64,000 bases of DNA. Origin: an uncultured Bacilli bacterium. Its GTDB lineage: Bacteria > Bacillota_I > Bacilli_A > RFN20 > CAG-449. Location of the stretch: contig CALVKD010000070.1 in NCBI GenBank assembly GCA_944332525.1, positions 4,014 to 68,013 of the forward strand, given 5' to 3'. Below the pieces are notes generated by a model. The model had not been told where the DNA came from. It did not search any database and saw only the letters and a list, made by a program, of their open reading frames with translations. A program made the position numbers and the translations under genes. Shown piece by piece: positions 6,166 through 40,399 of this stretch. Every line of letters starts with the position of its first letter. The first letter of the stretch is position 1.

Positions 6166-6219
6166 TTATTTTGCGAAGAAAATAGCAATATTTACGAATT
6201 GCAAATAAATTATAGAAAA

Positions 6220-6250
6220 TCTCTCTTAATAATAAAAGAGAGGTTTTTTT
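6220..6250 (+). terminator. Rho-independent terminator after greA whose 3' arm doubles as the RBS of the next gene
   Basis: Inverted repeat ctctctt/aagagag (loop aataataa) followed by gttttttt, then ATG at 6251. Confidence 0.5.
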
Positions 6251-7270
6251 ATGATAAAAAATATTTATTTAATGATGTTATTTCCTTTTGTCTTAGTATC
6301 TTGTAGTAACCAACAAGCACCAGAACATAGTTTAATTTTAAAAGAGAATACACTTTGCAAATCTCATATCCAAAATTATTATGAATGCAGTAAATGCCAT
6401 AAATTTTTTTTGGATTCTAATGCTGAACAAGAATTAACAATCAAAGACATTGATCATAATTATATTTACTCATTTTCTGATACTGATGATGGTGGTCAAA
6501 AAAATGGAACCTGTCAGTATTGTGAAAATAATTATTCTTCTAGAGATTTGCCTATGTTTAATAAAAAAACGTATGTTACTGATTCAGAAATAGCAATACC
6601 ATATCGCGAATACGTTCCAATAAATATTCACGAAAAAGTTCCTTTGATTTTATTTTTACATGGATCAGGAGAAAGAGGAAATGACAATGTATCGCAATTA
6701 AAGAATTGTATTAAAGAGCCATTTAAACAAGGAAATCAAGACTTTTTCAATTCAATTGTAATTGCTCCTCAATGTCCATCAGCACCTTCGCAGTGGGTAA
6801 ATTGGGATTGGTCTAATGGAAATTACAATTTAAAAGACATATCAGAATCTAAAGTTTTAGATGGTGTTTTTAATTTAATTAAAAACTATTCAAAAAAAAG
6901 TATTGTAGATACTTCGCGTATTTATATTATTGGTTTATCAATGGGTGGAATCGGCGTTTGGGATTTAATCGCTCGCCATCAAGACTTTTTTGCTGCTGCA
7001 GTGCCAATTTGCGGAGGTGGAGCTCTCGACTGTATTGAAATTTATAAGCAAATTCCTATTTATTGTTTTCATGGAGAAGACGATTCTACAGTTCCATATG
7101 AAAAGTCAACCAAGATTATGTACGAAAAAATTAAATCTGCTGGGGGCAATTTAATTAAATTCGTTTCATTTCCAAATCAGGGACATGGGATATGGAACAA
7201 TGCAATTACTTTTTCAGGAGATAATAATAATCCTCCTTTATCAGAATGGTTATTTTCTCAATCTAGGTAA
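6251..7270 (+). CDS. Lipoprotein alpha/beta-hydrolase (esterase / polymer-depolymerase family) with an N-terminal Cys-rich CxxC...CxxC module
   Basis: Signal peptide plus lipobox (LVSC). GLSMGG nucleophile elbow (GxSxG). HG oxyanion-hole motif (LHGSGERG). Two CxxC pairs near the N-terminus. Confidence 0.6.
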   Translation: MIKNIYLMMLFPFVLVSCSNQQAPEHSLILKENTLCKSHIQNYYECSKCHKFFLDSNAEQELTIKDIDHNYIYSFSDTDDGGQKNGTCQYCENNYSSRDLPMFNKKTYVTDSEIAIPYREYVPINIHEKVPLILFLHGSGERGNDNVSQLKNCIKEPFKQGNQDFFNSIVIAPQCPSAPSQWVNWDWSNGNYNLKDISESKVLDGVFNLIKNYSKKSIVDTSRIYIIGLSMGGIGVWDLIARHQDFFAAAVPICGGGALDCIEIYKQIPIYCFHGEDDSTVPYEKSTKIMYEKIKSAGGNLIKFVSFPNQGHGIWNNAITFSGDNNNPPLSEWLFSQSR

Positions 7271-7470
7271 GCGCTTACGTAATAGATTTAGGCATATACG
7301 AAATACTAAAAACTTTTTATATGCCAAATTTTATCATCTAATTACAAAATATGAACCTGTTTGGTGAAAACGGACTCGTAAATAAAAAGCACATCAGATT
7401 ACAAAATCATAATGTGCTTCTTTATAAACGGTCCGAATTAATCAAACACGTTCTATAGTGAGGTTTTATT

Positions 7471-7611
7471 ATGGAAAGAAAAAAATATACTACTCCCGAA
7501 ATAAGCGTTTGCAATTTAATTCTTGATGATATAATTGCTGTATCTTCAGTAGATACCGAAAAAGACATTTTTGATTTTGATGATGCTTTTGAAGATGTAT
7601 TCACCAAATAA
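7471..7611 (+). CDS. Small acidic peptide (46 aa) MERKKYTTPEISVCNLILDDIIAVSSVDTEKDIFDFDDAFEDVFTK; candidate signalling/precursor peptide
   Basis: Not in the supplied ORF track (below the size cutoff). RBS tgagg 8 nt upstream of ATG. Single Cys followed by four hydrophobic residues (C-NLIL), then an acidic tail. Lies 17 nt upstream of the first CBM-repeat protein gene. Confidence 0.35.
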   Translation: MERKKYTTPEISVCNLILDDIIAVSSVDTEKDIFDFDDAFEDVFTK

Positions 7612-7627
7612 TGATCGGAGATAATTT

Positions 7628-9628
7628 ATGAAAAAATCAAATTTATTATTATCCTTTTTAGCCTTATCGTCAATTTTTTGCCTATCCTCTTCAATCATCT
7701 ATAATTCATCCAATGCTAATAATATTTCGTTTACGGAGAAATATCTCAAAGAAGGCCCTACTGATTTATTTAATTCTGAAGAAGCCACAAAAATTTCGCA
7801 AATCAGTGAGTATGACAAATTAGATGCTAGTAAAATTTATACTCAATTTGCCTTTAATTCAAACGATAATTGTTATTATTTACGTTTTGCAGTTGCAGTA
7901 AAAGGAAACATACAAAAAATAATATTCACGCGAAGTATAACTTATAATGATCAAACTGCTAAAAAAGACTTTGAAGTTTCAACCATTTACGCCGGAATAA
8001 AAGCTAATGGCACAACTACCTATTATGATGGTTCAAATATTACAAGCGACGAGAATTATCGGGGTGATTATTATTGGGCATGCTACACAGCAAAATACAC
8101 TAGTTCCGAATTAATGAATGTTGATTTAAATGTTTCGGTAACTATTAATGAATCAGAATACTTTGATTCCAAAGTTATTTCACTTTTTGATGTTGTTAGT
8201 CAAACAGCCTATTTAATGGAAAATGAAAGTATAAAATACGAAGCCGAAGACATGATTAACGAAACCATTGTTGGTAAAATCGAATCTAGTAATGATGCAT
8301 CTAATGGAAAATTAATAGGTTCTTTGCAAGGATCTGATACATTGCAGTTTAATCATGTATCAGAGGCAAACAAAAAATATGTCATGAAAATTGCCGCAAC
8401 AACAAAAGGCAATATATCAGAAAACGCTTTTACAGCTTTTGCAAATAACAAAGAAATCGGTACAATCTCTATTGATAATAGGAACAATTGGACTGGAAAT
8501 TTTTATGAATATTACGCAGGTACAATTTCTATTAACAATGGTGATAACTCCATTAAAATTCAAAGAAACAACACCGGAAATCTTGATTATTTTACGCTTG
8601 ACAGCTATCTTGAATTGCCGTCAGAAAAAACATCTAGTCAAGTATATGAAGTTCATTCATTTACTTATCAAAATGTTTTATTGAAATTAAATGGTCATTC
8701 AAATGATTCATCAACTACAATATTAGAAGTCAATGGAGAAAGTACAACTGATGGTTCGCTGATTAATCTGAAACCTGGTCTCAATGAAATTTCCATAATT
8801 ACCGGTAATGAAAATATAGATTCAATTTCACTGACACATTATAATTCTCAGCAAAACTATGATAAAAACAAACTCATCATCGAAGCAGAAGATGGAATAA
8901 CAACATCTAAAGTTACTCCGCATAATAATTATTCAGGTACATTAGGACTTGATAGTTATAACGGAACAACATACCTTCCAATTAATTTAGATGATACTTC
9001 TTATTCAAAAATTTCAATTCTATATTCTTGTTATAATTCTATTGATGAATCACAAGATTACCTCGACTTATATATTAATAATACATTAGTTGATTCTTCT
9101 ACTGTGTTGAATATTGGTACTTGGGATTATACATCAATCCTTTCTATCGACAATATTAAAGAATATCTTCATAATGGTGACAATGTTATTGCTATAAAAG
9201 CTAAAAAAAATAATATTTTTAATCTTGATGCTGTGCTTCTATCTGAACCAACGACATTTCAAGGAGCAATTAGCGAAACATATTCTGTTCTTGATGCTAC
9301 TTTAGCTAAAGGGAGATTGACGACCGGATTTACGAGAATAGAAAATATCAGCGGTAATATACAATACAATATCAATAGCATAGCGACACAAGCTGAAATA
9401 CAAATCAATTATGCAGCTAATGGCGATAAATTTGAAGGATACCAAATTATTGTTAATGATGAAATAATTGCTTCAGTTGATGTAGTTTCTACTGGCGGAT
9501 GGGGCACTTTCAAATCTTCACCATCATTTAAAATTAATCTTAAAGAAGGAAATAACACAATAATTATAAAATATATAAATGGCGGTTATAATTTTCAAGA
9601 TTTAACAATTAATCCTCTTGCAGCCTAA
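7628..9628 (+). CDS. Secreted protein with tandem CBM6/CBM35-like beta-sandwich modules
   Basis: N-terminal signal peptide. Repeated module starts (KYEAEDM..., IIEAEDG...) and ends (LDYFTLDSY, NGGYNFQDLTINP) matching the IEAE...NxDYI pattern typical of CBM6/35-type modules. Confidence 0.6.
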   Translation: MKKSNLLLSFLALSSIFCLSSSIIYNSSNANNISFTEKYLKEGPTDLFNSEEATKISQISEYDKLDASKIYTQFAFNSNDNCYYLRFAVAVKGNIQKIIFTRSITYNDQTAKKDFEVSTIYAGIKANGTTTYYDGSNITSDENYRGDYYWACYTAKYTSSELMNVDLNVSVTINESEYFDSKVISLFDVVSQTAYLMENESIKYEAEDMINETIVGKIESSNDASNGKLIGSLQGSDTLQFNHVSEANKKYVMKIAATTKGNISENAFTAFANNKEIGTISIDNRNNWTGNFYEYYAGTISINNGDNSIKIQRNNTGNLDYFTLDSYLELPSEKTSSQVYEVHSFTYQNVLLKLNGHSNDSSTTILEVNGESTTDGSLINLKPGLNEISIITGNENIDSISLTHYNSQQNYDKNKLIIEAEDGITTSKVTPHNNYSGTLGLDSYNGTTYLPINLDDTSYSKISILYSCYNSIDESQDYLDLYINNTLVDSSTVLNIGTWDYTSILSIDNIKEYLHNGDNVIAIKAKKNNIFNLDAVLLSEPTTFQGAISETYSVLDATLAKGRLTTGFTRIENISGNIQYNINSIATQAEIQINYAANGDKFEGYQIIVNDEIIASVDVVSTGGWGTFKSSPSFKINLKEGNNTIIIKYINGGYNFQDLTINPLAA

Positions 9629-9636
9629 TAATTTGA

Positions 9637-9672
9637 AGATAGCTACATATATAGCTATCTTCTTATTTATTT
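9637..9672 (+). terminator. Rho-independent terminator
   Basis: Perfect 9-bp inverted repeat agatagcta/tagctatct (loop catata) followed by tcttatttattt. Confidence 0.55.
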
Positions 9673-9711
9673 AATTGATATCCTAGAATACGATAAGTAT
9701 AATGAGGTATA

Positions 9712-10413
9712 GTGTTTATGATACGTATTATAGTACTTGACGATGATTATGAAGCATACAATACTTTAAAGATATTTATTGACCAGTTTTCAAAAGAAAA
9801 CAACATTGGTTTTGAAATCAATTATTTTTCTAATCCATTAAGTTTTCTAGATGATTATACACCTGCAGATTTAATTTTAATGGATATTGATATGCCATAT
9901 CTAAATGGAATAGAAACCGCAGAAAAATTAAGGAGTAAAGACCCTAATGTTCTTTTGATATTCATTACAAACTATGTACAATATGCCATTAAAGGCTACT
10001 CAGTAAACGCAATTGATTATGTTTTGAAGCCAGTAAAATATGCACGTTTTTCTTCACTAATGTCTCGAGTTCTTAAAATGATAATTGCCTCTAAAAATGA
10101 CAATATCATTATTAAAACAACAGATGGTACAATAAAAATAAATGCTTTTTTGATTATCTCTGTTGAGGTTAGTGATCACCTATTAATTTATCATACAGAT
10201 TCTAAAGAATATGAGGCTTGGGGCAGTTTAAAAGAGACAGCTTTGATGCTTCCTAGTTATTTTGAGCGTTGCAATCATTCTGTCATTGTAAACTTAAAGA
10301 AAGTGATAAGACTTGATAAAAACGAAATTACATTAACTGATGGAAATAAATATTTAATTTCTCAAAAGAAAAAAAGTGATTTCATTTCAAAGTTAAATAG
10401 GTTTTTAAAATAG
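9712..10413 (+). CDS. LytTR-family response regulator (AgrA/ComE-like)
   Basis: N-terminal receiver domain (IIVLDDD...LMDIDMP...K). C-terminal LytTR DNA-binding domain (~100 aa). The true start is probably MIRII at 9718. Confidence 0.85.
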   Translation: MFMIRIIVLDDDYEAYNTLKIFIDQFSKENNIGFEINYFSNPLSFLDDYTPADLILMDIDMPYLNGIETAEKLRSKDPNVLLIFITNYVQYAIKGYSVNAIDYVLKPVKYARFSSLMSRVLKMIIASKNDNIIIKTTDGTIKINAFLIISVEVSDHLLIYHTDSKEYEAWGSLKETALMLPSYFERCNHSVIVNLKKVIRLDKNEITLTDGNKYLISQKKKSDFISKLNRFLK

Positions 10414-10414
10414 T

Positions 10415-11734
10415 ATGCTTATTTTATTTTTGCAATATTTTATAAAATATTTTATCCAAGGGTCTGGATTGCTTGTGATAACAACTTTATCATGCTCCCA
10501 ATTACAAAAAAAGCGGCATTTCCAATTTATATTTTTTATATATTTAATTATATTAATTTTAGCAACTTGCATTATCGCGTATATAAGAATAGATTCTGTT
10601 GGTGGAGATGAGAACGTTTTTGATGTAATTTTCTTAATTTGCAATTATCTATTAATATTATCTTGGTCATTTATCGCTTATAAAAGCGAGGCACAGGTCA
10701 TAACTTGTTTTTTAATTATTTCTTTTCCCGCATTTTATATAGCATTGAAACTATCTGATGGACTATTATTCATTTTAAAAAATAATAATATTATCACTAG
10801 TTTTTATGTGGATCTTTCTATTCTTTTTATAGTTCAATTAATAGTATATTCACTATCATATTTTCTCATTATGAGAACTTATAAAAAAGACTCCCTAATG
10901 ATTGAAAATAATTCAACAATAATTATGTTTTCTCTTTTTTCAATTATCACAATAATTTTAGGTATAATTGAAATTTTCTTAAAAAATTATGGTTATTCTT
11001 ATTTGTTTTTTCTTTCACTCATTGAAGTATTATATGGAATTATAACACTTGCTACGTCATACGCTGTGATACAAAAAGAAGAATCACAAGTTGAATTAGC
11101 TATTTTAAAAAAACTTTGGGATGAAGATAAAAAACAATATTCTCTGTTAAAGGAAAATATTGAAATAATTAATTTGAAATGTCATGATTTAAAGCATCAA
11201 TTTTATGCGTTGAAAAACAATCAAGCACTTGATGAAAAATTGACAAAAGAAATAGAAGAATCCATAGATATCTACAACTCAAAAATAAAAACTGAAAATG
11301 AAGTTCTTGATATAATTTTGACTGATTATAATCTTCGTTCTATAAACAATTCAATTGAACTAACCTGTATGGCTGATGGTAAACTTTTAAATTTTATGGA
11401 AGAAACTGATCTTTATTCTTTATTCGGAAATATGTTGTCCAATGCTTTTGAATATGAATTGAAAGTCAGTTTAGACAAAAGATTTATTTCATTGACGATA
11501 ACTCAAAAAGGAAAATATGTCTCAATTCATTGTGAAAATTATTACGATGGTGGTGAACTGAAAAAAAATGACGGAAAAGTAATTTCAAGCAAAAAAGATC
11601 CTTTCGGGCATGGTTTCGGTATGATTTCGATGCAAAGAATTGTTGCAAAATATTCAGGTGAATTTCAATATATAATATCTGATAATATGTTTCAAATTGA
11701 TATTGAGATACCTATAGGAGAGCATTATGAATAA
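10415..11734 (+). CDS. HPK10-family sensor histidine kinase (AgrC/ComD/VirS-like), polytopic membrane sensor
   Basis: About 6 N-terminal TM helices. H-box CHDLKHQF. GHKL ATPase G-box GHGFGMISMQ. Start is 2 nt after the RR stop. Confidence 0.8.
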   Translation: MLILFLQYFIKYFIQGSGLLVITTLSCSQLQKKRHFQFIFFIYLIILILATCIIAYIRIDSVGGDENVFDVIFLICNYLLILSWSFIAYKSEAQVITCFLIISFPAFYIALKLSDGLLFILKNNNIITSFYVDLSILFIVQLIVYSLSYFLIMRTYKKDSLMIENNSTIIMFSLFSIITIILGIIEIFLKNYGYSYLFFLSLIEVLYGIITLATSYAVIQKEESQVELAILKKLWDEDKKQYSLLKENIEIINLKCHDLKHQFYALKNNQALDEKLTKEIEESIDIYNSKIKTENEVLDIILTDYNLRSINNSIELTCMADGKLLNFMEETDLYSLFGNMLSNAFEYELKVSLDKRFISLTITQKGKYVSIHCENYYDGGELKKNDGKVISSKKDPFGHGFGMISMQRIVAKYSGEFQYIISDNMFQIDIEIPIGEHYE

Positions 11735-13574
11735 AATAAAAACTAATAATTATTTGATATTATCAATAATAAGCTCATTTATGGTGATGCTATTAGTTTC
11801 ACTGGTCGTAGTTATTGCAATAACATCGACCAACAATAATGCTACTATTAATTTTCCACATTATGATTATAGCGACTATATTGATCGAAGCGATAATAAA
11901 TTTTTTGCAGCAAACGCTGGTTCGCAATTGTATCAAGCTGAATCTGCTTCTATTACTGGTAATGGTGAAATAGTGAGTAATATTGGAGCATCAGATGGCT
12001 TATGTGTAAATAACCTAACTAATTACTCATCGTTATCGTATACAATAGTTAGTGATGAGGATTGTTTTGTAGAATTAAAATTATCTCTAAATTATACTGA
12101 TTCTTTTAATAGACCAATATTAGCAAACAATCTATTTACACTAACATTAAATCGCAAAGAAGTATCGCTAAATAACATTTTTATCAATTCGTCTGCATCT
12201 AATTATGATTTTATAGAAAATAATATCGGTACCATAAGTCTACAAAAAGGCAACAATTTATTACAATTAATATCAACATCACCTAATTATCAAATAGATT
12301 ATATGGTATTAACTTCACCATTTGAACGATCAACTCAACTTAAAAGTATCGGTCATATTTATTATCCATTTTATTATCAGGAAAATAAGCAGATTTTTGA
12401 GGCTGAAAATTCAGAAAGACACAATTCCGTAATTTTTGATTCATCGTTAGCTTCGCAAGGATATTATCTTTTATTTTCTCAAAATCAAGATAAGTCCATC
12501 TTCTATATAAATTCTGATTTAGATTTTTCAAGTGTCCTATCCGCATGCGTAAAGCCTATATCTATCAATCAAAAATTCGCGTTTTCTGTTTATGTCAATG
12601 GAAATCTAATTGATAATTACCAATTTATTGAAAACAGCAATGTATTTTTTGAACAAACACTGACCCGTATAAACCTAAAAAGTGGTAATAATATTATTGA
12701 AATAATTCATTTAGAAGGAACTTTTAATTTTGATTACATTTCATTAAATGGAGACATTAATTATTCATTGGTTGAGGATACGCAACGGTATGAGTGTGAA
12801 AAAGCTGAAATTGATAACGCGGCAATAATTTCAGATATAAATGCTTCTGCTAATAATTCCGTACTTTTTTATTCAAATTCTGTTTTAAATCAACGTTTAA
12901 TTTCTTTAGTGGACGACAATAATTATTTGTCGCTGAGAATAAAAAACCTATCAAGCGAAACAGAATTATCAAAAATGATGAAGATAATGGTTAATAATCG
13001 TATTTTAGATCTAACTTATATTGATTGTCCGGATAATGAAAAATATCACGATATTTTTATTGGATCAATTAACATAATCTCTGGTTCTAATTTAATTAGA
13101 ATCTCATCTGTTAATGATAATTTTCTTATTGATTGTATTACTTTGATCAAGACTACAATCAATGACAATTTTGATGCTATGCGCTTTGAGGGTGAAAACG
13201 CATTATTATCTGGCAATTGCGGAATTGAATATAATGTAACTGCTTCACAAGGGAAAAATGTTGGATACATAAAAAAGGATAGTTCATTGACTTTCGTATT
13301 TTACTCTAGTATTGCAATAAAAGCTAATTTAATAATTTCTTTATCAAACTCATTTAAAGAAAATGATTATTTAAAACATTTTTTGCAGATTGATATTAAC
13401 AGCAATGTTTTGCCAATTGAAAGTATAGTTTTTGTTGCAGGAAATGGTTGGAAATATTTCTTTGAAATTAATATAGGAAATATTAGTATAAATCCAGGCA
13501 TTAACACCATTTCAATAAAATGTCTAAATGATTCTTCATATAACTTAGACTATATAGAATTACATCATATTTGA
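11727..13574 (+). CDS. Membrane-anchored/secreted protein with four CBM6/CBM35-like modules
   Basis: N-terminal signal anchor. Four repeats starting YQAESAS, IFEAENS, YECEKAEI, MRFEGENA and ending IDYMVLTSP, FDYISLNG, IDCITLIK, LDYIELHHI. Start overlaps the HK stop (co-transcribed). Confidence 0.6.
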   Translation: MNKIKTNNYLILSIISSFMVMLLVSLVVVIAITSTNNNATINFPHYDYSDYIDRSDNKFFAANAGSQLYQAESASITGNGEIVSNIGASDGLCVNNLTNYSSLSYTIVSDEDCFVELKLSLNYTDSFNRPILANNLFTLTLNRKEVSLNNIFINSSASNYDFIENNIGTISLQKGNNLLQLISTSPNYQIDYMVLTSPFERSTQLKSIGHIYYPFYYQENKQIFEAENSERHNSVIFDSSLASQGYYLLFSQNQDKSIFYINSDLDFSSVLSACVKPISINQKFAFSVYVNGNLIDNYQFIENSNVFFEQTLTRINLKSGNNIIEIIHLEGTFNFDYISLNGDINYSLVEDTQRYECEKAEIDNAAIISDINASANNSVLFYSNSVLNQRLISLVDDNNYLSLRIKNLSSETELSKMMKIMVNNRILDLTYIDCPDNEKYHDIFIGSINIISGSNLIRISSVNDNFLIDCITLIKTTINDNFDAMRFEGENALLSGNCGIEYNVTASQGKNVGYIKKDSSLTFVFYSSIAIKANLIISLSNSFKENDYLKHFLQIDINSNVLPIESIVFVAGNGWKYFFEINIGNISINPGINTISIKCLNDSSYNLDYIELHHI

Positions 13575-13676
13575 AAGCCCTTACGTAAGAATTTTCCTCG
13601 CTTACGTAAAATAGAAAATGATTGATATTTCTCATAATAACATATAATTATAAAATTTTGCTTTTAGGAGGTAATT

Positions 13677-16600
13677 ATGAATAAAAAAGTATTTTCAGTA
13701 ATTATGGCTTCTGCTACGGCATTGCTAGCTGGAATTATGATTACTGGTAATATTCTCGGATTTAAAACATATTCAAGTTTTTTAACCACATATTTTGGCA
13801 TGGAAGGAACAACAGAAACAAATATTGATGATAATCAATATTTTCCGCGCATTCTAAAATCTGCTGAAGAAGCTTCAAAAAAGTCTGCTGAAATATGTGA
13901 ACAAGTAGAAGAGGAAGGCGCAGTTTTATTAACTAACCACAATAATTCTTTGCCACTTAATAAATCCAGTAATGTTAGCGTTTTTTCTCAATCTTCAGTC
14001 GATTTTGTCATTGGATCTACCGGAGGATCTGGCGAGATATCTGCTTCGGAATTAACGTTGCAATCAGCATTAGAAAATGTTGGAATAAACGTTAATCCGA
14101 CACTAATAAATTTTTATAAAAGTATGAATTATCATCGAAAAATTGGTGGATTAGCTCAAGGAACTAGCAAAGATCCTTTTTTATGGTCTATTAATGAAAT
14201 TCCATATAGTAAATATACTGATGAAGTAAAAAATTCATATAAAAATTATAATGATGCAGCTATCGTTGTCATTTCGCGTACCGGTGCTGAAAATGCCGAT
14301 TTGCCTACAGATATGGCCTCTGCAGATTCAAGAAACAAACGTGGTTCTACATCTATTTTAGAACTTGATACTGATGAAAAAGAACTTCTTAAAAATGTTA
14401 CAAATAATTTTGATAAAGTAATCGTATTGCTTAATACTACTAATGCTTTTGAATGTGGATTTCTCGATGACTATGATATTGATGCATGTCTATGGGTCGG
14501 TGGTGCTGGTCAATATGGTTTAAATGCTATAGCTAGACTTTTAGTTGGTGATAGCAATCCATCTGGTCATTTGGCAGATACTTATGCATATGATGTTTTT
14601 TCATCTCCAGCAATGCAAAATTGGGGTAATTTTGCTTATGTCGATGATTCGGGAAAAGAAACAGGACATCATTACGTAACATATGCCGAAGGAATATATG
14701 TCGGCTATAAATACTATGAAACGCGCTACGAAGATAAAATTATGAATCAGGGGAACGCTGGTGAATATGATTATGATAGTGTTGTTCAGTTTCCATTCGG
14801 ATATGGACTATCGTATACCGAGTTTACTTGGTCTAATTTTGATTATGCTTTGGACGATAAAACAATTAATATTAAAGTTACAGTCACAAATACGGGTGAA
14901 AAAGCAGGTAAAGAAGTAGTTCAATTTTATACGCAATCCCCATATACTCAATATGATATCGACAACCAAATAGAAAAATCCGCTGTTAATTTGATGGGTT
15001 TTGCTAAAACAGGCATATTAGATCCAAATCAAAGCGAAACAGTAAAAATTTCTATTCCACTTGAACGATTAAAATCATACGATGCAAATGGTTTAGGGAC
15101 ATATCTTCTTGAAAAAGGTGATTATTATTTTACTGTAGCGGAAAATTCACATGAGGCGATAAATAATATTCTCAAAGTAAAAGGGTATAATGTAAATGGT
15201 AACGAAAATTTATGTGAAAAAGATACCCTAGAAGAAATAATTTATAATAAAGATACGACCACCAACACTGAGATTGTTAATCAGTTTGAAGATGCTAATG
15301 GTGATAAAAAGTATCTAAGCCGTCATGATTGGTCATCAATGAATAATAATGGTTTAAGGGATGGCACAAACGAAAATAATCGCTATGACAATGATGGTTA
15401 TATTTATGAGCAAAAAATAACACCTGAATTAAAAGAAACATTAGAAAAAACGGGATATGAAGCCGCTAATGCGCCAGAACAAGAATATTCTGATCCAACA
15501 TTCAATGCTAATAATAAAAAAGTTTTAATCGACATGAAAGGAAAAGAGTTTAATGACCCTGAATGGGATCCACTTCTTGATCAATTACGTATTAAAGAAC
15601 TTGAGCAGATGGTTACATCATCTGGGCATAAAACATATGCAATTCCTTCTGTTGGAAAACCATATGCAACTGATTCTGATGGAACATCAGCATGGAAATC
15701 ATTTATTGGTGATGGTGTAAATGCAGGTGGAATGCCTAATGAAACTGTACAAGCATCCACTTTTAATACCGAATTAGAATACGAAGTTGGACAAATAATG
15801 GGTGAATTGGCACTTTGGGCAAAAGTTACTGCCTCAGCTCAAACCACAAATTTGACTGGTTGGTATGCACCTGCAATGAATTTGCATCGCACACCTTTCG
15901 GCGGTCGTAATTTTGAATACTATTCCGAGTGTCCGATGTTATCTGGAATTATCGGTTCATCTGTTGTCAAGGGAGCTACCGATAAAGGGGTCATAACATA
16001 TATCAAACATTTTGCCTTTAATGAACAAGAAACAAATAGAATGACCAACAATGTAACTTGGTCGACTGAACAAGCATTACGTGAGACTTATCTTTTGCCT
16101 TTTGAAATGTCAGTTAAAGAAGGTGGATCACTTGGTGTGATGACTGCTTATCCCCGTGTTGGAACAACTTGGACCGGAGGTAGTTATGCGCTTATTACTA
16201 ACGTTTTAAGAAAAGAATGGGGATTCAATGGTTTTGTAATCACTGATTATATGGATGGTGATTATGAAAATTGTGACCAAATGTTAGCTGCTGGTGGTGA
16301 TGCCGCACTTTGTTTAGAGGAACAATATGTTACTACAGAAGGCGCACGAGCACATACGTATCTCAGAAATGCAGCACATCATCTTTTATACTCATTTGTA
16401 AATTCTAATGGTATGAACGGAATTGATGCTAACAGTTTAATTGTCGGGGGTACTCCTGTTTATTACAGAATTATGATTTTTTTCAATATAACCTTTGGAA
16501 CATTAATTCTTCTAACAATATTTTTAACAATCTTAGGAATTATTCAACAAAGAAAAATTAAAGCATTATCTGGAGGAAATTCAGGAAATTTTAATAATGA

Positions 16601-19526
16601 TAGCGAATTAAAAAATGATAATACTGTCGATAACAAATCGAAAACATCAAAAGAATTAACTGAAAAACAAATTCAAAAACAAGTAGCTTTGCCATTAAAA
16701 ATTAAAATCATTATCGGTGGTATTGTCATTGCTATTATAGTCTCATCTGGATTAATACTATACTTTACTAGAGAGAAAAGCGATTCTAAAACGTCAACAA
16801 GTCTTCCAGAAATCGTTAATCCTCTTGATCCAAATACAGACTTAATGAACAAATATGGACAAATTACAAAAAAGAATTTATTATCCGGAAGCAAATTTGA
16901 TCAAAACAATCAAAAATATATGTTTTTTGATGATTTATCAGCTGGATATTATTATGAAGCTGAAGATGCTACACTATCGTCAAAACCACAAATTCAAGAA
17001 AGTTTAATTACTTCTGGCGGAAAATTTGTTAGCCACTATCAAGTTGGAGAAACTATTTCCTTCACAATTCAATCTACAGTCGAAACATCAGCCTTGCTGA
17101 TTCTATCAACAGCTTGTTGGGATAATTCACCTAGACTAATATCTGACCTTCTCTTTGGTCAATTTGGTACTAATCCGAATTCTCTTGATTTCTATATGGA
17201 TTTTAGCGATAGAACAATTCAAGGTCAAAACAATTGGAATATATTTTCTGAAAGTTATATATGTGAAGTGTATCTTTACGAAGGAGAAAATACTATTGAA
17301 TTTTCAGCTTATGAAGATTTAAATCTTGATTATATGTGTTTAGTCAATCCTGGAGCAGGTTTAAATCTACCTTCTCAAGAAAATGATCCAACTGACTACA
17401 ATGCAAAATATGGTCATCCTGATAAAAGAATACTGACTAAAGGAACATCAACATTTTCTATAAACGAAAGAGGATATTATTATGAAGCTGAAGAAGCAGA
17501 ATTATCTAGCAATATCCGTATTGATAATAATGGGGCTGCTTCCGGTCAAAAAAATATTTCATATTTTAACCCTGGCGAATACATGAAATTAGTTATAACA
17601 TCTGACGATGATGCTTCAGTAATGTTAAGTGTCTCAGCTAGTGAATACAATTCTAAAGATTTCTTAGTTGAAAATGTATTAATGGTCAAATATGGTAATG
17701 ATGAAAACAATTTAACAGAGCTAGATACATATCAAAATATAATTCACACTACTGGTGGATGGAACAATTTCAGCGAATCTATAATTGGTGAGATTCATCT
17801 AAAAAAAGGACAAAATATTATATATTTAATTTCCAAAGCTGCTCTGAATTACGATTATATTACTTTAGTAAATGTATGGGATGGAACGCCTGATCCAGTT
17901 TTACCTCCTGACGAGGAAACCCCACCATCTGATATTAATTATGAAGAAAAATATGGATTACCAACTAAACAAGTGCTTAGTGATGGCTCAGCAATGAAAT
18001 TTGATAATTCTGTTCGTGGATATTTCTACGAGGCTGAACAAGCTTATTTGTCAGAAGGAATTAATATCAGCGATAATGTTGCTGCTTCCGGAGGAAAAAC
18101 AATTGATCATTTCCAAAATGGTCGATATATGGAATTTACTATAACTAGTTCTATCGAATCAGATGTTTTACTTCTTTTATCCGGTGCAAAATATGAAAAA
18201 GGCGATTATTCAATCGGTTCAATCATGAACGTTACTTATCATTTGGAAGGCGAAGAATCTAAATCTCTAGTACCGTCACCTAAACCATTCTCTCCTATTG
18301 GTGATAGTTGGGATACTTATAAAGAATTTGTCGCCGGAGAAATACATCTTAAAGAAGGTAAAAATATTATTCGTATTACATCAACCAATATTCCTGTAAA
18401 CTATGATTATATTATGCTTGCATCTCCATATTCAGGAGAAGAACCTGAAAAAGATGATTATAGCAACAAATATGGCAATCATGAATTCAGCGAATATCTA
18501 AACGGAACAGAAAATATGATTTTTTCTAACTCCGCATGTGGATATTTTTATGAAGCTGAATCTGATTTAGTGAAAAAAACTGGAGATATTCAGAATGAAA
18601 ATGTTGCAGAGGGTGTTACGGCTTCGGGAAATGCTTTTATAAATCGTTTTAGAAGAAATGCTACAATGACTTTAACCATTACATCAGAAATAGAAAGTGA
18701 TGTCTTAGTTCGCTTTTCTGGTTGCACAGGAAGCGCAAATGAAGCCTTACCTGTTGCATCTTATATATTACTTTCGTACGGAACTACTGAAGATAATCTT
18801 ACAAAAGTAGATAATAGTTCTTTGACGTTCTCGTCAAAGGGCTCTTGGAACAAGTTCACTGAATTTACCATAGGAGAAATCCATTTGAAAAAAGGAATAA
18901 ATTATATTGTTCTAACTGGAATTGAAAATAATGGTGTTAATTGTGATTATATAGCCTTAATTAATCCAAAAAATGAAACTGAAGATACTCCGGCTTATCC
19001 AACGCTAGAGGAAAAATATGGCGATCCAAATTTTTCTGAATACGTATTAGGTACCGGAGATATTGATACTTCATCACGCGGATACTATTATGAAGCTGAA
19101 TCTGATATTATTTCAAAAAATGGTGATATTCAAATTGAAAATGCTGCAGAAGGAGTAAATGCTTCCGGTAATGCATTTATAAATCGCTTCAGAAGGAATG
19201 CGACAATGACATTAAAAATAAGTGTTTCCGAAGAAATGACTATGCTTGTTAGGTTTTCCGGCTGTATTGATAAAAAAGCAGAAAATCTTCAAGTAGCAGA
19301 TTATATTTCTGTAAAATATGGAACATCTCTTGATTCTTTACTATCATCTGATAATTCATCTTTACTCTTCTCTTCATTGGGTGATTGGAATAAATTTAAT
19401 GAATTCTCTATCGGAGAAATTCGTCTTATGCCAGGCGATAATTATTTAGTTTTGACAGGTGTAGAATACAATGGAATAAATTGCGATTATATAGCCTTAG
19501 TAAACGCCTTAAATTTGGTGCAATAA
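13677..19526 (+). CDS. Giant surface glycoside hydrolase family 3 (beta-glucosidase/xylosidase-like) with permuted domain order, an internal 2-TM hairpin and five C-terminal CBM6/35-like repeats
   Basis: Signal peptide. GH3 C-terminal-type domain motifs (VLLTNHNNSLPL, VVVISRTGAENADLP). Fn3-like module (EVVQFYTQSPY). GH3 catalytic (beta/alpha)8 domain with nucleophile motif GFVITDYMDG. Hydrophobic helices at about aa 925-950 and 1010-1035. Five ~178-aa repeats, each starting KYG...GY(Y/F)YEAE and ending N(Y/C)DYI(T/A/M)L. Confidence 0.8.
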   Translation: MNKKVFSVIMASATALLAGIMITGNILGFKTYSSFLTTYFGMEGTTETNIDDNQYFPRILKSAEEASKKSAEICEQVEEEGAVLLTNHNNSLPLNKSSNVSVFSQSSVDFVIGSTGGSGEISASELTLQSALENVGINVNPTLINFYKSMNYHRKIGGLAQGTSKDPFLWSINEIPYSKYTDEVKNSYKNYNDAAIVVISRTGAENADLPTDMASADSRNKRGSTSILELDTDEKELLKNVTNNFDKVIVLLNTTNAFECGFLDDYDIDACLWVGGAGQYGLNAIARLLVGDSNPSGHLADTYAYDVFSSPAMQNWGNFAYVDDSGKETGHHYVTYAEGIYVGYKYYETRYEDKIMNQGNAGEYDYDSVVQFPFGYGLSYTEFTWSNFDYALDDKTINIKVTVTNTGEKAGKEVVQFYTQSPYTQYDIDNQIEKSAVNLMGFAKTGILDPNQSETVKISIPLERLKSYDANGLGTYLLEKGDYYFTVAENSHEAINNILKVKGYNVNGNENLCEKDTLEEIIYNKDTTTNTEIVNQFEDANGDKKYLSRHDWSSMNNNGLRDGTNENNRYDNDGYIYEQKITPELKETLEKTGYEAANAPEQEYSDPTFNANNKKVLIDMKGKEFNDPEWDPLLDQLRIKELEQMVTSSGHKTYAIPSVGKPYATDSDGTSAWKSFIGDGVNAGGMPNETVQASTFNTELEYEVGQIMGELALWAKVTASAQTTNLTGWYAPAMNLHRTPFGGRNFEYYSECPMLSGIIGSSVVKGATDKGVITYIKHFAFNEQETNRMTNNVTWSTEQALRETYLLPFEMSVKEGGSLGVMTAYPRVGTTWTGGSYALITNVLRKEWGFNGFVITDYMDGDYENCDQMLAAGGDAALCLEEQYVTTEGARAHTYLRNAAHHLLYSFVNSNGMNGIDANSLIVGGTPVYYRIMIFFNITFGTLILLTIFLTILGIIQQRKIKALSGGNSGNFNNDSELKNDNTVDNKSKTSKELTEKQIQKQVALPLKIKIIIGGIVIAIIVSSGLILYFTREKSDSKTSTSLPEIVNPLDPNTDLMNKYGQITKKNLLSGSKFDQNNQKYMFFDDLSAGYYYEAEDATLSSKPQIQESLITSGGKFVSHYQVGETISFTIQSTVETSALLILSTACWDNSPRLISDLLFGQFGTNPNSLDFYMDFSDRTIQGQNNWNIFSESYICEVYLYEGENTIEFSAYEDLNLDYMCLVNPGAGLNLPSQENDPTDYNAKYGHPDKRILTKGTSTFSINERGYYYEAEEAELSSNIRIDNNGAASGQKNISYFNPGEYMKLVITSDDDASVMLSVSASEYNSKDFLVENVLMVKYGNDENNLTELDTYQNIIHTTGGWNNFSESIIGEIHLKKGQNIIYLISKAALNYDYITLVNVWDGTPDPVLPPDEETPPSDINYEEKYGLPTKQVLSDGSAMKFDNSVRGYFYEAEQAYLSEGINISDNVAASGGKTIDHFQNGRYMEFTITSSIESDVLLLLSGAKYEKGDYSIGSIMNVTYHLEGEESKSLVPSPKPFSPIGDSWDTYKEFVAGEIHLKEGKNIIRITSTNIPVNYDYIMLASPYSGEEPEKDDYSNKYGNHEFSEYLNGTENMIFSNSACGYFYEAESDLVKKTGDIQNENVAEGVTASGNAFINRFRRNATMTLTITSEIESDVLVRFSGCTGSANEALPVASYILLSYGTTEDNLTKVDNSSLTFSSKGSWNKFTEFTIGEIHLKKGINYIVLTGIENNGVNCDYIALINPKNETEDTPAYPTLEEKYGDPNFSEYVLGTGDIDTSSRGYYYEAESDIISKNGDIQIENAAEGVNASGNAFINRFRRNATMTLKISVSEEMTMLVRFSGCIDKKAENLQVADYISVKYGTSLDSLLSSDNSSLLFSSLGDWNKFNEFSIGEIRLMPGDNYLVLTGVEYNGINCDYIALVNALNLVQ
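16900..19526 (+). repeat. Five tandem ~535-bp intragenic coding repeats (CBM-like modules) inside the GH3 gene
   Basis: The YYYEAE motif recurs at approximately 16950, 17480, 18020, 18550 and 19090. The two 3'-most copies are most similar to each other (ASGNAFINRFRRNATMTL in both). Confidence 0.6.
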
Positions 19527-19735
19527 TGAAAAAAACACTTCTTACAATCATATTTTGTTTTATGGTTATGACTTCCTGTAAAACAACCAATATTACGGAA
19601 CACTCTGAATTGAGTTCTTCATTTCCATCAATAGCTACTGCATCTCAGCCAGTTAACTCTTTGGATACAGAAATTAATCAAATTTCAAAAGAAGAATATA
19701 TATCAGATAACATGAATTTTGGAAGTCTAATATAA
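19526..19735 (+). CDS. Small lipoprotein (69 aa)
   Basis: ATG overlaps the GH3 stop by 1 nt. Signal peptide plus lipobox MKKTLLTIIFCFMVMTSC. The listed 84-aa ORF (19481) is upstream read-through. Confidence 0.45.
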   Translation: MKKTLLTIIFCFMVMTSCKTTNITEHSELSSSFPSIATASQPVNSLDTEINQISKEEYISDNMNFGSLI

Positions 19736-19760
19736 AAACGGGGATTACCCCGTTTTTTTA
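19735..19760. terminator. Bidirectional terminator between the convergent lipoprotein gene (+) and ribF (-)
   Basis: aaaacgggg-atta-ccccgttttttt hairpin with flanking A- and T-runs. Confidence 0.6.
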
Positions 19761-32993: not shown

Positions 32994-33476
32994 CTAACGG
33001 AAGATAAAGATTTTTCTGCCTAGATAATTAATTACTAACCCGATAATGGTCATAATAATTCTTGCGACAATATAAGGCACTGGAAGCAAATCGCTCAAGA
33101 GATAAATACCTAAATAAGATAGTAATAAAACAAATACTCCAATTAAGGTAAATACTAAAAAGTCGCGGACGCTTTTACCCTCTTTTTCATCTTTTTTATT
33201 TTTATAAACAAAAATAACAGATAATATATAATTGATAATTAAGCCAACAATAAAACCAAAGGTTGTCGCTAAAGCTTTTTCAATATGCCAGTTTCCGAGA
33301 ATAATCTCCGGTAATAAGTATTCTTCGGAAATAAAACTGACCGCCCAGTCAACTAACGTCGCTAATCCGCCAACAATCAAGAAACGAAAGATTTCCCAAA
33401 TTAAATCGCGATGTTTTAAATACAATTCTTTTAACTTCATGCCTAAAATCTTACTCCCATAATTTGAAATAGTCAA
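32994..33476 (-). CDS. GtrA-family small polytopic membrane protein
   Basis: 160 aa, 4 predicted TM helices, GtrA-like organisation. Lies 36 nt downstream of the nucleotidyltransferase gene. Confidence 0.55.
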   Translation of the reverse strand: MTISNYGSKILGMKLKELYLKHRDLIWEIFRFLIVGGLATLVDWAVSFISEEYLLPEIILGNWHIEKALATTFGFIVGLIINYILSVIFVYKNKKDEKEGKSVRDFLVFTLIGVFVLLLSYLGIYLLSDLLPVPYIVARIIMTIIGLVINYLGRKIFIFR

Positions 33477-33511
33477 TTGAAGATTTTCAAAGATAACAAT
33501 TGTCTAAAATA

Positions 33512-34609
33512 TTATTCAATTCCGAATTTAATTAAACCATCATCTTTGCTTTCAACGCTTAAAACTTTATTTAGTTTATCCCTTTTTGTAAAAAGCAAGC
33601 TAATAAAATGATGGATATAGGCAAAAGGAATCAAAATAATAGAACGAGAATAAGGATATTTTTCAAATAGCAGATGCAAAGGGATAAAAACCTTTTTTAG
33701 CAAATAGACAAACTTGTTATCCTTTGAATGGGCAAATTTGCTTTTATTGATATCATTTTCCTTTCCAAAACCATGTATTCCTGAACGCAAAGAATAATTA
33801 ATCAATTCTTCAATGTCATCGCGTTTATAGTATTTCATTCCGCATTGAATTAGCTGCTCTGGATTATATTCAAAAATATATTCTAATTCATTAATAATCG
33901 TATTAAAAAAATCACTAATCTCTAATTCATTAACATATGAGAGAATTTTTTGATAGTTCATTTTTTTCTTAGTCAGCATTAAATAAACATCTCCGAGTTC
34001 ACGTACTCCCGCTCCGGATTTTAAATGTTTATGGTAATGCATCAATAAAAAAACAAAATGATATTCATCTTCTAGATGGCAGCGATAGCCCTCACAGCTT
34101 TTAATATATTTGAAAGGATTATGGAAAAATTTATCGCCTTTTTCACCTTCTTCTAAAAGTTGATGATGAAGTTCGGCATAAGATTTATCGTAAACATATT
34201 CCGCGTGGTGTTTAGCTATCGAATCGAGAACAAAAGAGTTTTCTTCTAATAGTTTCCGAGCTTTTAGATAATCTTTGCCGTCAACGCAAAAATCAATATC
34301 GCCAGATAAGCGAAGATTTCTATCATCATATAAAGGAAATAGTTCATAACCTTTAAAGAAGAAATATCTAATTTGATTCGCCGAGAAAATATCAGCAATT
34401 TTTTCAGCTATTTCGTCGTATTTTTCATGTAAAACAAACGAAGAAAGATAATATTTCTTAAAACGCGAGTCATTAGATACTTTATATAAATAAGGCAAAA
34501 AAGTTTGCTCAGAAATAATTCTCATCTGATTTTTTAATTCTTCATCAGAAGGAAGTGTTATTTTTCTATTTTGAATGCCCGCCGAAAATAAATTTAAAAT
34601 AAAATTCAT
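33512..34609 (-). CDS. Nucleotidyltransferase-fold protein (PF14907-like 'uncharacterised nucleotidyltransferase', as found tailoring lasso peptides)
   Basis: hG[GS]...DhD motif LRLSGDIDFCV about 100 aa from the N-terminus; 365 aa; start overlaps the ABC gene stop. Confidence 0.55.
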   Translation of the reverse strand: MNFILNLFSAGIQNRKITLPSDEELKNQMRIISEQTFLPYLYKVSNDSRFKKYYLSSFVLHEKYDEIAEKIADIFSANQIRYFFFKGYELFPLYDDRNLRLSGDIDFCVDGKDYLKARKLLEENSFVLDSIAKHHAEYVYDKSYAELHHQLLEEGEKGDKFFHNPFKYIKSCEGYRCHLEDEYHFVFLLMHYHKHLKSGAGVRELGDVYLMLTKKKMNYQKILSYVNELEISDFFNTIINELEYIFEYNPEQLIQCGMKYYKRDDIEELINYSLRSGIHGFGKENDINKSKFAHSKDNKFVYLLKKVFIPLHLLFEKYPYSRSIILIPFAYIHHFISLLFTKRDKLNKVLSVESKDDGLIKFGIE

Positions 34610-36174: not shown

Positions 36175-36593
36175 TAAATTTTCCTCAATTTAATTATTAA
36201 GTAACGAAGAAAGCGAAAACGCCAAAAGAAAAGATAGATGCGATATTTTTTATCTGAAAACAAAACTTTCTTTTCGTTAATAATAACATAGATAGCTTTG
36301 GCAAGAATCTGATCTTCACGAATATTTTTTTCAATTTTTGTTTGATGGTCACCGAGAAGAAAGAACTTATTCTTCTTCACTTTAAAAATTCTATGCAATA
36401 CGTATTGTCCGTTATCGCGAAGATAAAAAACAATATCATTTTTCTTTAAGGCAAATGGTTTGCTTAATGCAACTAAATCACCCGTATGAAGGAATGGCTG
36501 CATCGAAGTCCCGTTGATCGGCATAATAAAGACTTTATCTTGTTCGAGAGTCTCTTTTAAACCATCAACAAAAAAATTAATCTCCATAAACAA
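36174..36593 (-). CDS. Soluble S26/S24-family (signal-peptidase I / LexA-type) Ser-Lys peptidase
   Basis: GTSMQP (S26 box B, catalytic Ser), with a downstream Lys. 139 aa; no TM segment. Confidence 0.55.
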   Translation of the reverse strand: MFMEINFFVDGLKETLEQDKVFIMPINGTSMQPFLHTGDLVALSKPFALKKNDIVFYLRDNGQYVLHRIFKVKKNKFFLLGDHQTKIEKNIREDQILAKAIYVIINEKKVLFSDKKYRIYLFFWRFRFLRYLIIKLRKI

Positions 36594-36852
36594 TATTAAG
36601 TGTCTTCAGCTGATTAATTGTCACGATGATGTCTTGTTTGGCTTTTTCTTTGCTAACATCATATTCTGCAACCATCTTTTCAGTTATATCATCAATGGAA
36701 AGATTATTCATAACACCTTCGACTATCAAAAGGGATGTCGGGTTTAAAGTAATGACTTTTGAATAATCGACACTTTTTTTACTTTGGCGAACTAGCAATG
36801 CTTCATCACCAACTTTTTTAATCACATAATCTGTATTAAATTTCATAATCAT
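36577..36852 (-). CDS. PqqD-like small protein (RiPP recognition element-like)
   Basis: 91 aa. Composition and pattern are PqqD-like: a hydrophobic beta-strand start (YVIKKVGDEALLV) followed by helical segments (LLIVEGV...IDDITEKMVAEY...). Tight overlaps with both neighbours. Confidence 0.5.
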   Translation of the reverse strand: MIMKFNTDYVIKKVGDEALLVRQSKKSVDYSKVITLNPTSLLIVEGVMNNLSIDDITEKMVAEYDVSKEKAKQDIIVTINQLKTLNIVYGD

Positions 36853-40352: not shown

Positions 40353-40399
40353 CCTATCACCTTATATCAATTATATAATTTAAGGTGAATAAGATAAAG

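Follow-up and report, generated by a model that had tools for sequence, protein, structure and literature searches.

What does a two-component system of a class usually annotated as "quorum sensing" regulate, and what does it sense, when it lies among genes for carbohydrate-binding surface proteins? The question is raised by a 64,000-nt stretch of DNA from an uncultured Bacilli bacterium (contig CALVKD010000070.1, assembly GCA_944332525.1), referred to here as the window, in which the block from 6251 to 19760 encodes a LytTR response regulator and a histidine kinase embedded among three proteins with carbohydrate-binding modules (CBM). This arrangement had been proposed in an original prediction, and the seven open reading frames (ORFs) given there, all on the plus strand, were verified at their coordinates, together with their domains and the 12 modules of the three proteins. 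The same prediction dedicated the two-component system to a carbohydrate capture and degradation apparatus. This assignment gained support from a conserved triad of regulator, kinase, and CBM protein accompanied by a glycoside hydrolase family 3 (GH3) gene in about 12 lineages, and from predicted operators of LytTR geometry at the promoters of the secreted proteins. The locus is probably a substrate-responsive regulon through which a sensory module of three genes controls the capture and degradation of glycans at the cell surface.

The genes of the sensory module and the elements preceding them are the following.

9635 to 9662, plus strand: intrinsic terminator after the 666-aa gene, 11-bp stem and T-run (dG -15.5, z -5.5).

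9675 to 9703, plus strand: predicted sigma-70-type promoter TTGATA-17-TATAAT of the sensor operon, 11/12 match, the best in the region, without regulator repeats.

9712 to 10413, plus strand: response regulator with receiver and LytTR domains (Pfam Response_reg E 2e-14, LytTR E 2e-13).

10415 to 11734, plus strand: histidine kinase with DHp and HATPase_c_5 domains (HATPase_c_5 E 1e-19).

11727 to 13574, plus strand: 615-aa single-pass membrane protein (hydropathy, hidden Markov model [HMM] of the modules).

The response regulator likely starts at the ATG at 9718, and its receiver domain carries the residues D8/D9, D56, and K104. Its best NCBIfam matches were BtsR, LytR, and AgrA, all far under the cutoffs (64 bits against a cutoff of 246 for BtsR and 37 bits against 400 for AgrA). 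In the kinase, hydropathy indicated six to seven hydrophobic segments joined by short loops only within residues 1 to 219, and the cytoplasmic part contains the H-box HDLKHQF at 257 to 263 (H257), the N-box at 336 to 346, and the G-box at 398 to 403. The Pfam domains, H257, and the number of segments agree with the earlier description of an HPK10-family kinase with six transmembrane segments and the H-box HDLKHQF, paired with a LytTR regulator. The only Pfam domains reported for the kinase were HATPase_c_5 and HATPase_c, and the LytS-type domains (5TM-Lyt, GAF, and His_kinase PF06580) were not among them; no AgrC match was obtained in NCBIfam and no match among the PDB sequences. Across 11 kinase orthologs, the cytoplasmic part was strongly conserved, and the transmembrane part was hypervariable, almost without conserved residues.

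The regulator and kinase genes are separated by 1 nt, the start of the 615-aa gene overlaps the kinase stop by 8 nt, and the three genes appear to form one translationally coupled operon with its own sigma-70 promoter behind a terminator. Hairpins equivalent to the terminator were found in the related loci L021, L005, L008, L010, and L019, and promoters of the form TTGACA-17-(TG)TAnAAT stand at the equivalent place in L005, L008, L010, and L019, with a comparable element in L018. The pair of terminator and promoter before the regulator gene recurs in relatives with kinases 39 to 67% identical (L021, L005, L008, and L010) and in L019. The proposal that the system shares one transcript with its neighbors was therefore contradicted by the terminator and the 11/12 promoter before the regulator gene, both recurring in relatives, and by a regulator-type promoter of its own for the GH3 gene. 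An operator sought before the regulator gene was not found, just an ACGATAA fragment within the promoter spacer. Autoinduction in the manner of Agr is not predicted either, as the regulator gene in the window and in the relatives lies behind a terminator and a consensus sigma-70 promoter free of repeats.

The following predicted operators of the response regulator were located in the window.

13579 to 13610, plus strand: predicted operator of the GH3 gene, CCTTACGTAAG-N10-GCTTACGTAAA, 16/16 match.

7273 to 7304, plus strand: predicted operator of the operon for a 46-aa peptide and the 666-aa protein, GCTTACGTAAT-N10-ATATACGAAAT, with the -10 element TATCAT at 7332 to 7337 and with conserved counterparts before the peptide genes of L021 and L005.

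6169 to 6200, plus strand: putative operator upstream of the esterase gene, TTTTGCGAAGA-N10-ATTTACGAATT, 21-bp period, 13/16 match, alone not significant.

The half-site TTACG(A/T)AA forms a direct repeat with a 21-bp period upstream of the 46-aa/666-aa operon and of the GH3 gene. The exact CTTACGTAA occurred four times in 64 kb compared to 0.32 expected, all in these two intergenic regions of the cassette, and a scan for paired TTAYGWAA at 21 bp with at least 15/16 matches returned only 7275 and 13581/13588 (4 hits versus 0.19 expected). Enrichment of paired half-sites was seen at the 21-bp period only, other periods giving 0 to 2 hits. Of the three upstream regions in which a search for LytTR repeats had been suggested, 7271 to 7627 and 13575 to 13676 thus contained them, and 9629 to 9711, before the regulator gene, did not.

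Direct repeats with the 21-bp period were also present at equivalent promoters in L021, L003, L005, L008, L010, L016, L018, and L019, and in a wider clade (L024, L025, and L029), in which GH3 is transcribed divergently with the site oriented toward it. Sites equivalent to that of the GH3 gene were assigned in L003, L005, L008, L010, and L019 and in the same three loci of the wider clade. An alignment of 30 half-sites from 11 loci gave the consensus (G/A)(C/G)TTACGAAA(T/A), with G7, A9, and A10 in 30/30. A -10-like hexamer stood exactly +32 nt from the G of the proximal half-site in 11/17 promoters, compared to a background of 0.10, and within 30 to 33 nt in 13/17; the candidates at the GH3 gene are TAACAT (13638 to 13643) and TATAAT (13643 to 13648). 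Because the -10-like hexamer sits at this fixed +32, the proximal half-site is predicted to replace the -35 box, as in promoters that depend on an activator. As read from the sequence, the arrangement fits that of LytTR sites, two direct repeats of about 9 bp, 12 to 13 bp apart, near the -35 region.

The site upstream of the esterase gene is followed by a -10-like AATAAT at 6228 to 6233, at the canonical +32 spacing of the family, and the orthologous esterase gene in L003 is preceded by a clear operator site. By this spacing and the L003 site, the putative operator is probably genuine. The greA terminator hairpin (6221 to 6243) holds the esterase Shine-Dalgarno sequence in its 3' arm and AATAAT in its loop, and a transcript from the putative regulator-dependent esterase promoter would start inside the greA terminator stem, escaping termination. 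A further structure was detected in the leader of the peptide operon.

7388 to 7424, plus strand: strong hairpin in the 5' leader of the peptide operon (dG -14.6 kcal/mol, z -4.8).

The hairpin lies between the operator at 7273 to 7304 and the 46-aa ORF, is flanked by an A-run and a weak U-run, and is absent from the shorter leader of the sister species L021; it could be an attenuator or the esterase terminator.

The conservation of the sensory module was followed in related loci. Kinase homologs with 67%, 50%, 40%, 39%, and 41% identity were all located within related cassettes, and scans with the 615-aa family yielded nine loci from species-representative genomes and fourteen loci from metagenomes. 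A 615-type gene directly followed the kinase gene in 13/13 metagenome loci with upstream sequence and in 9/9 genome loci, the order of regulator, kinase, and 615-type gene was kept wherever the sequence sufficed, and a permuted GH3 was encoded in the neighborhood. The start of the 615-type gene overlaps the kinase stop in the window, L003, L005, L008, L010, and L021. The 615-type gene thus has the invariable linkage and overlap with the kinase gene that characterize the in-operon accessory gene of a three-component system. Judging from these sequences, the invariant core in about 12 lineages of uncultured Bacilli and Clostridia is the regulator-kinase-CBM35 triad with the predicted operator, beside a transmembrane-anchored permuted GH3.

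The closest named relatives were metagenome-assembled genomes designated "uncultured Bacilli," "uncultured Firmicutes," and "Clostridiales." Across loci, variation was seen in the occurrence of the esterase, peptide, and 666-aa genes and in where the GH3 gene stands, with the 666-aa family present in the window, L021, L003, and L005 and the esterase in the window and L003; additional GH3, GH5, GH2, GH88, and transporter genes occurred in other loci. The wider kinase clade, at 31 to 41% identity, includes one cluster of 2,890 members. A protein of 130 to 156 aa with four transmembrane segments, encoded beside a transmembrane-anchored GH3 in L023 (3522 to 3914), L024 (3450 to 3848 and 15803 to 16198), and L010 (5323 to 5793), and not in the window, might be a further membrane partner of GH3 or the kinase.

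The 615-aa protein consists of a short cytoplasmic tail, a transmembrane helix at about residues 9 to 35, a juxtamembrane motif, and four CBM35 modules. Throughout its family the juxtamembrane motif FPxYxYxxYxDRS...GxQLYExE is invariant, and two to four CBM35 modules come after it. The proportion of invariant positions in the family was highest in the juxtamembrane segment (29%), compared to 3% in the transmembrane helix and 9 to 22% in the modules, and the motif is absent from the paralogous anchored CBM protein L008_457.

Pfam CBM matches of single modules all remained under the gathering cutoffs (20 to 26 bits). Word-indexed homolog searches returned three proteins for the 615-aa and six for the 666-aa protein, so the module alignment was built from the window's own 12 repeats. 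The iterated HMM delimited these 12 as full modules: the GH3 protein contains five and the 615-aa protein four, and the 666-aa protein has three along with a remnant. Compared with solved chains, the 12-module profile matched CBM35 with E 8e-11 (2w47/2w1w) to 1e-7 and CBM6 with 6e-5. An AlphaFold2 model of module 1 of the 615-aa protein (pLDDT 94.9) aligned with the CBM35 2w1w at a TM-score of 0.78 to 0.80, and nearly all of its top 50 Foldseek matches in the PDB were CBM35/CBM6 domains with a beta-sandwich (jelly-roll) fold and TM-scores of 0.7 to 0.8. The Asn of the N-x-D-Y motif, aligned with PNVDY of 2w47, was kept in 10/12 modules. By family and modeled fold the tandem modules belong to CBM35/CBM6, and sugar binding is predicted for them; the profile and the Foldseek match of the model bear out the earlier description of the repeats as CBM6/CBM35-like.

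The genes under the predicted operators encode the following proteins.

6251 to 7270, plus strand: lipoprotein esterase, 339 aa (lipobox LVSC, Cys18; Pfam Peptidase_S9/DLH/Abhydrolase_2).

7471 to 7611, plus strand: 46-aa acidic peptide, pI 4.1 (GTGAGG Shine-Dalgarno sequence; orthologs).

7628 to 9628, plus strand: secreted 666-aa protein (module HMM, orthologs).

13677 to 19526, plus strand: 1949-aa surface enzyme with a permuted GH3 and five CBM35/6 modules (Pfam, module HMM, hydropathy).

19526 to 19735, plus strand: 69-aa lipoprotein, lipobox MTSC (MKKTLLTIIFCFMVMTSCK...NFGSLI), its ATG overlapping the GH3 stop (TAATG).

The GH3 protein begins with a signal or anchor segment (residues 4 to 27), and Pfam placed GH3_C at 83 to 344, an Fn3-like domain at 413 to 491, and GH3_N at 684 to 888, a permuted order with GH3_C and the Fn3-like domain ahead of the TIM-barrel GH3_N. 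The closest solved relatives were the permuted beta-glucosidases 5k6l (E 2e-82) and 5wug, to which residues 72 to 493 were matched first. The C-terminal half contains a transmembrane helix at 930 to 958, a basic loop, a second transmembrane helix at 1002 to 1033, and five CBM35/6 modules between 1090 and 1941. The pair of helices had been overlooked in the original prediction and gives the predicted topology GH3(out)-TM-loop-TM-CBM35x5(out), with TM for transmembrane helix. In relatives, GH3 has a C-terminal transmembrane helix and is followed by a separate CBM protein; in L008 and L010 the two are encoded by separate overlapping genes, and the downstream CBM protein is lipoprotein-like. From the two helices with the basic loop and the separate genes of the relatives, the window protein looks fused: a GH3 anchored at its C-terminus would have been joined to a CBM35 protein anchored at its N-terminus, both halves lying outside. 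The 69-aa lipoprotein had not been listed before; the sister species (L001) has a 76-aa ortholog after its GH3 gene, with a shared C-terminal FGSLI.

The presence of a lipoprotein esterase and a small peptide gene upstream was confirmed, by the lipobox for the former and by orthologs in two other lineages for the latter. In the esterase, an N-terminal segment rich in Cys precedes an alpha/beta-hydrolase of the polyhydroxybutyrate (PHB)-depolymerase/esterase family (NCBIfam esterase_phb, 59 bits, under the cutoff). An ortholog with 53% identity is encoded by the first cassette gene in L003/L012/L013, and the gene is absent from L021 and L005. The Cys-rich extracellular motif recurs at N-termini, as YYECSKCHKFF in the esterase (residues ~36 to 95) and as YYVCGGCKKWF in a 945-aa protein of L008 (6328 to 9165). 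The 666-aa protein has a conserved N-terminal beta-sandwich at about 45 to 190, CBM35-like modules at 204 to 324, 419 to 538, and 577 to 656, and a module remnant at 377 to 402. The AlphaFold2 model of its N-terminal domain had a pLDDT of 65 (core about 80), and Foldseek returned generic Ig-like matches only (E 2e-3, TM-score 0.36).

A mechanism can be proposed from these elements. The sensor operon of regulator, kinase, and 615-type gene would be made constitutively, and the polytopic kinase, devoid of an extracellular domain, would be triggered by carbohydrate and not by an Agr-type peptide. The membrane-anchored CBM35 protein would act as the extracellular glycan receptor or co-sensor and may pass the signal to the kinase via its conserved juxtamembrane segment and the transmembrane helix. 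The phosphorylated LytTR regulator would then bind the repeats as a dimer and activate the promoters of two operons, that of the GH3 enzyme with the lipoprotein and that of the peptide with the 666-aa protein, probably together with that of the esterase gene. The first hydrolysis products may come from GH3 made at a basal level, through transcripts that run on from the sensor operon. The CBM35 anchor protein is favored as the receptor because its gene is translationally coupled to that of the kinase without exception and because its membrane-proximal segment is conserved. For the family at large we suggest, tentatively and with less than even confidence, that a polytopic AgrC-like kinase was converted to a polysaccharide sensor with a coupled tandem-CBM35 receptor and that the family drives membrane-anchored GH3 enzymes via a TTACGAAA-N13-TTACGAAA operator.

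Several observations weigh against this reading. The wider clade (L024 and L025) keeps the regulator, the kinase, the transmembrane-anchored GH3, and the predicted operator but lacks the 615-type gene, and therefore the kinase family can, as far as gene content indicates, function without a 615-type protein. The 615-aa protein shows no sequence conservation in its transmembrane helix, and its modules 1 and 3 lack the N-x-D-Y Asn that is common to the other modules and the CBM35 2w47. The TTACGTAA core is palindromic in some sites, and a conserved small peptide is the first gene behind one regulator-dependent promoter, as in autoinducing circuits.

A serious alternative, though we consider it unlikely, is direct sensing by the kinase of a small sugar or oligosaccharide that basal GH3 activity sets free. 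The 615-aa protein would then only tether substrate near the cell, and its co-expression with the sensor would ensure a constant minimum of capture capacity. Both the wider clade with its operator and no 615-type gene and the unconserved transmembrane helix speak for this alternative, and the best NCBIfam match of the regulator, far under the cutoff, is the nutrient-sensing BtsR, the LytS-type partner of which, BtsS, senses pyruvate. Yet tethering alone would leave unexplained the strict adjacency and overlapping frames of the kinase and 615-type genes in all of the approximately 12 lineages of the sub-clade, as well as a juxtamembrane motif that is invariant in the family and missing from the paralog L008_457. 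A kinase transmembrane domain almost without conservation would also be odd for a shared small-molecule pocket.

True peptide quorum sensing is improbable in our estimation. Here the 46-aa ORF would encode a pheromone or a precursor of a ribosomally synthesized and posttranslationally modified peptide (RiPP), matured elsewhere and sensed by the AgrC-like kinase, and the glycan genes would be controlled by cell density. From its orthologs in two other lineages (P0121, 63% identity, and an ORF of L005, 46%), the 46-aa ORF is a real gene, conserved at the protein level with the motifs KKYxxPE[IV] at the N-terminus and KDIF(D/E)FDD, and its place as the first gene behind a regulator-type promoter in three lineages resembles a positive-feedback architecture. 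Within the cassette family, however, the peptide is confined to the window, L021, and L005-L007, and it is absent from L003, L008, L010, L015-L019, L023-L025, and L029 despite the same triad or operator. Since most lineages with the same triad and operator lack it, the peptide cannot be the general signal of the family of two-component systems. It has no signal peptide, transmembrane segment, or conserved Cys; the three orthologs gave no match in Pfam or NCBIfam at E up to 10, AgrD included, and an exhaustive phmmer search of 1.84 billion representatives with the 46-aa peptide returned a single hit. A double-glycine leader was considered and rejected, as DGG was found in one ortholog only. The alternative raised in the original prediction, with the peptide as the signal, was weakened by this restriction to three lineages and the missing family match, whereas its statement that AgrB-like and ComA-like genes are lacking held among the ORFs of at least 150 aa. 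Neither AgrB, AgrD, nor a C39-ABC exporter was found among those ORFs in the 64 kb, AgrB and C39 transporters were not found in related loci either, and the sensor operon itself is not under the repeats.

Candidate maturation genes for such a peptide would be a PqqD/RiPP recognition element (RRE)-like protein, an S24/S26 peptidase, an ABC exporter, and an NTP_transf_5 protein in a cluster at 33.5 to 37.7 kb, an RRE-containing cluster without an adjacent precursor. Among the small intergenic ORFs of the window, the 46-aa ORF alone carries YxxPx[LIV] at its N-terminus, and its YxxPx[IV] is presumably reminiscent of RRE-binding leaders; the putative link to the distal cluster consists solely of this motif. 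The cluster as a whole (32994 to 37669, minus strand, ~29% GC) is RiPP-like and lies about 26 kb from the 46-aa ORF. Its predicted products are an HprK/ScmC-like P-loop protein (277 aa), a PqqD-family, RRE-like protein (91 aa), an S24/S26 signal-peptidase-like protein (139 aa), an NTP_transf_5 nucleotidyltransferase, a GtrA-like protein, and an ABC exporter without a C39 domain; no relatives of the cluster were found in the related loci.

Very improbable is an assignment of the repeats to another regulator, such as a dimeric factor on the TTACGTAA palindrome, with the two-component system sensing envelope or surface-protein load, since, although TTACGTAA is an 8-bp palindrome in three half-sites of the window and intramembrane-sensing kinases of the LiaS/BceS type often monitor the envelope state, most half-sites of the relatives are non-palindromic (TTACGAAA and TTATGAAA), the repeats are without exception direct, their period is exactly 21 bp, their distance to the -10 element is fixed, the motif travels with the regulator-kinase pair even under inverted gene order, and the cassette has no other conserved regulator gene.

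A substrate-responsive regulon with a CBM35 partner was then compared with known systems. Like the Agr (AgrC/AgrA with AgrB/AgrD), ComDE, PlnBCD, and Fsr systems, the locus combines a LytTR regulator with a polytopic, short-loop HATPase_c_5 kinase, and it shares with Agr-type circuits two direct repeats of the 9-bp type, about 12 bp apart, abutting or replacing the -35 box. It differs from Agr in the absence of AgrB, AgrD, and a C39 exporter, in the AgrA score of 37 versus 400 bits, and in having no AgrC match. The sensor operon is, from its promoter sequence, constitutive and not autoinduced, and the regulon comprises glycan-binding and -degrading surface proteins plus the in-operon CBM35 membrane protein.

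In the RsgI/SigI systems of Clostridium thermocellum, a membrane-anchored CBM protein is proposed to detect insoluble or oligomeric glycan and switch on glycoside-hydrolase genes, so that, as suggested here, an anchored extracellular CBM reports polysaccharide. These systems work by anti-sigma/sigma release without a histidine kinase, and their CBMs (CBM3, CBM42, PA14, and others) lie within the anti-sigma factor itself. A similar logic, from an extracellular nutrient via a LytTR regulator and direct repeats to acquisition genes, is found in BtsS/BtsR and YpdA/YpdB of E. coli, from which the present system differs in a kinase with HATPase_c_5 only in Pfam and in targets that are surface enzymes and not a transporter. 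To our knowledge, none of the accessory proteins of the YycH/YycI, LiaF, and ChvE type has CBM modules or an HPK10/LytTR pairing. In YycH/YycI-WalK, LiaF-LiaS, and ChvE-VirA, a kinase without its own sensing domain receives its input from, or has it modulated by, an accessory membrane or extracytoplasmic protein, often encoded in the operon of the kinase, as is generally known and reviewed (PMC8534201, PMC12189002); compared to these systems, the interaction of kinase and 615-aa protein is one that we infer.

The same gene association, a LytTR regulator beside a membrane-anchored GH3 in a Firmicute polysaccharide locus, is on record and was compared by description only. In Butyrivibrio proteoclasticus B316, LytTR regulators stand beside secreted GH3 enzymes with a C-terminal transmembrane helix in the polysaccharide utilization loci PUL7, 21, and 33 (PMC2914790), and a response regulator[LytTR] with a histidine kinase is listed for the arabinoxylan locus Ros-7 among the Gram-positive PULs of Roseburia (PMC5320581). 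These reports are annotation-level remarks in which no operator, signal, or third component is described, and the literature searched yielded no paper on the operator, on how the sensor operon is built, or on a third component bearing a CBM. The wider clade L023-L025 resembles the Butyrivibrio arrangement in its LytTR regulator and membrane-anchored GH3, and what distinguishes the present sub-clade is its CBM35 anchor protein and its GH3-CBM fusions. The locus would thus be a LytTR two-component system controlling a Firmicute glycan locus, and what appears new, as judged from sequence, is the conserved CBM35 membrane partner and the defined operator.

The block had also been described as an AT-rich accessory island. 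The AT-richness was real and modest, with a GC content of 30.3% compared to 32.7% in the remainder of the window (a deficit of only 2.4 points) and a GC content at third codon positions of 0.17 to 0.22 in block genes versus 0.23 to 0.29 in flanking genes. The exact start of the block gave the lowest GC among the 13.5-kb windows tested, and the regions at 33 to 36 kb and 46 to 52 kb nearly equaled it in AT-richness. The cassette sits at the same greA/ribF site in the sister species, and in L003 and L005 its neighbors are unrelated and partly mobile-element-like. The data make "accessory cassette" a reasonable label but do not establish a recent island. Upstream of the cassette, the neighbors differ between samples that have an identical kinase, with a serine recombinase and small genes in L005 (5098 to 6723) and a tRNA methyltransferase in L006/L007, and a type II Cas9 gene lies just downstream of the cassette in L005 and L006. 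The downstream end of the block is marked by one further element.

19738 to 19759, strand not assigned: bidirectional terminator (ACGGGG-ATTA-CCCCGT and T-run), common to the convergent ribF gene, from direct sequence reading.

A search of 6 to 20 kb against Rfam at E up to 1 returned only chance matches to microRNA and plastid hairpins. Elsewhere in the window, a rhamnose catabolism cluster (39714 to 44771), with a rhaB-like FGGY kinase, rhaA, a class II aldolase, and a HAD hydrolase, has a divergent AraC regulator, and a LacI regulator gene accompanies deoC at 52.5 to 54.3 kb; with these, conventional sugar regulators are also used.

Glycan sensing in Gram-positive gut and rumen bacteria is far less understood than the SusR, hybrid two-component system (HTCS), and extracytoplasmic function (ECF)-sigma pathways of Bacteroides. 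The locus offers a compact, testable circuit: the operator is defined in sequence, the promoter geometry is fixed, and a sensor operon and a candidate for the extracellular receptor are at hand. Should the CBM35 protein prove to be this receptor, it would be the first CBM-based co-receptor of a two-component system and a new route for extracellular carbohydrate input to an intramembrane kinase. The motif would then serve to predict regulons of unannotated LytTR systems near GH3 genes, and caution would be due in taking metagenomic AgrCA-like pairs as peptide signaling. If the kinase was indeed converted to polysaccharide sensing, the locus would represent a large, uncharacterized LytTR family in gut and rumen Firmicutes, in which a single cluster of related kinases already holds 2,890 sequences.

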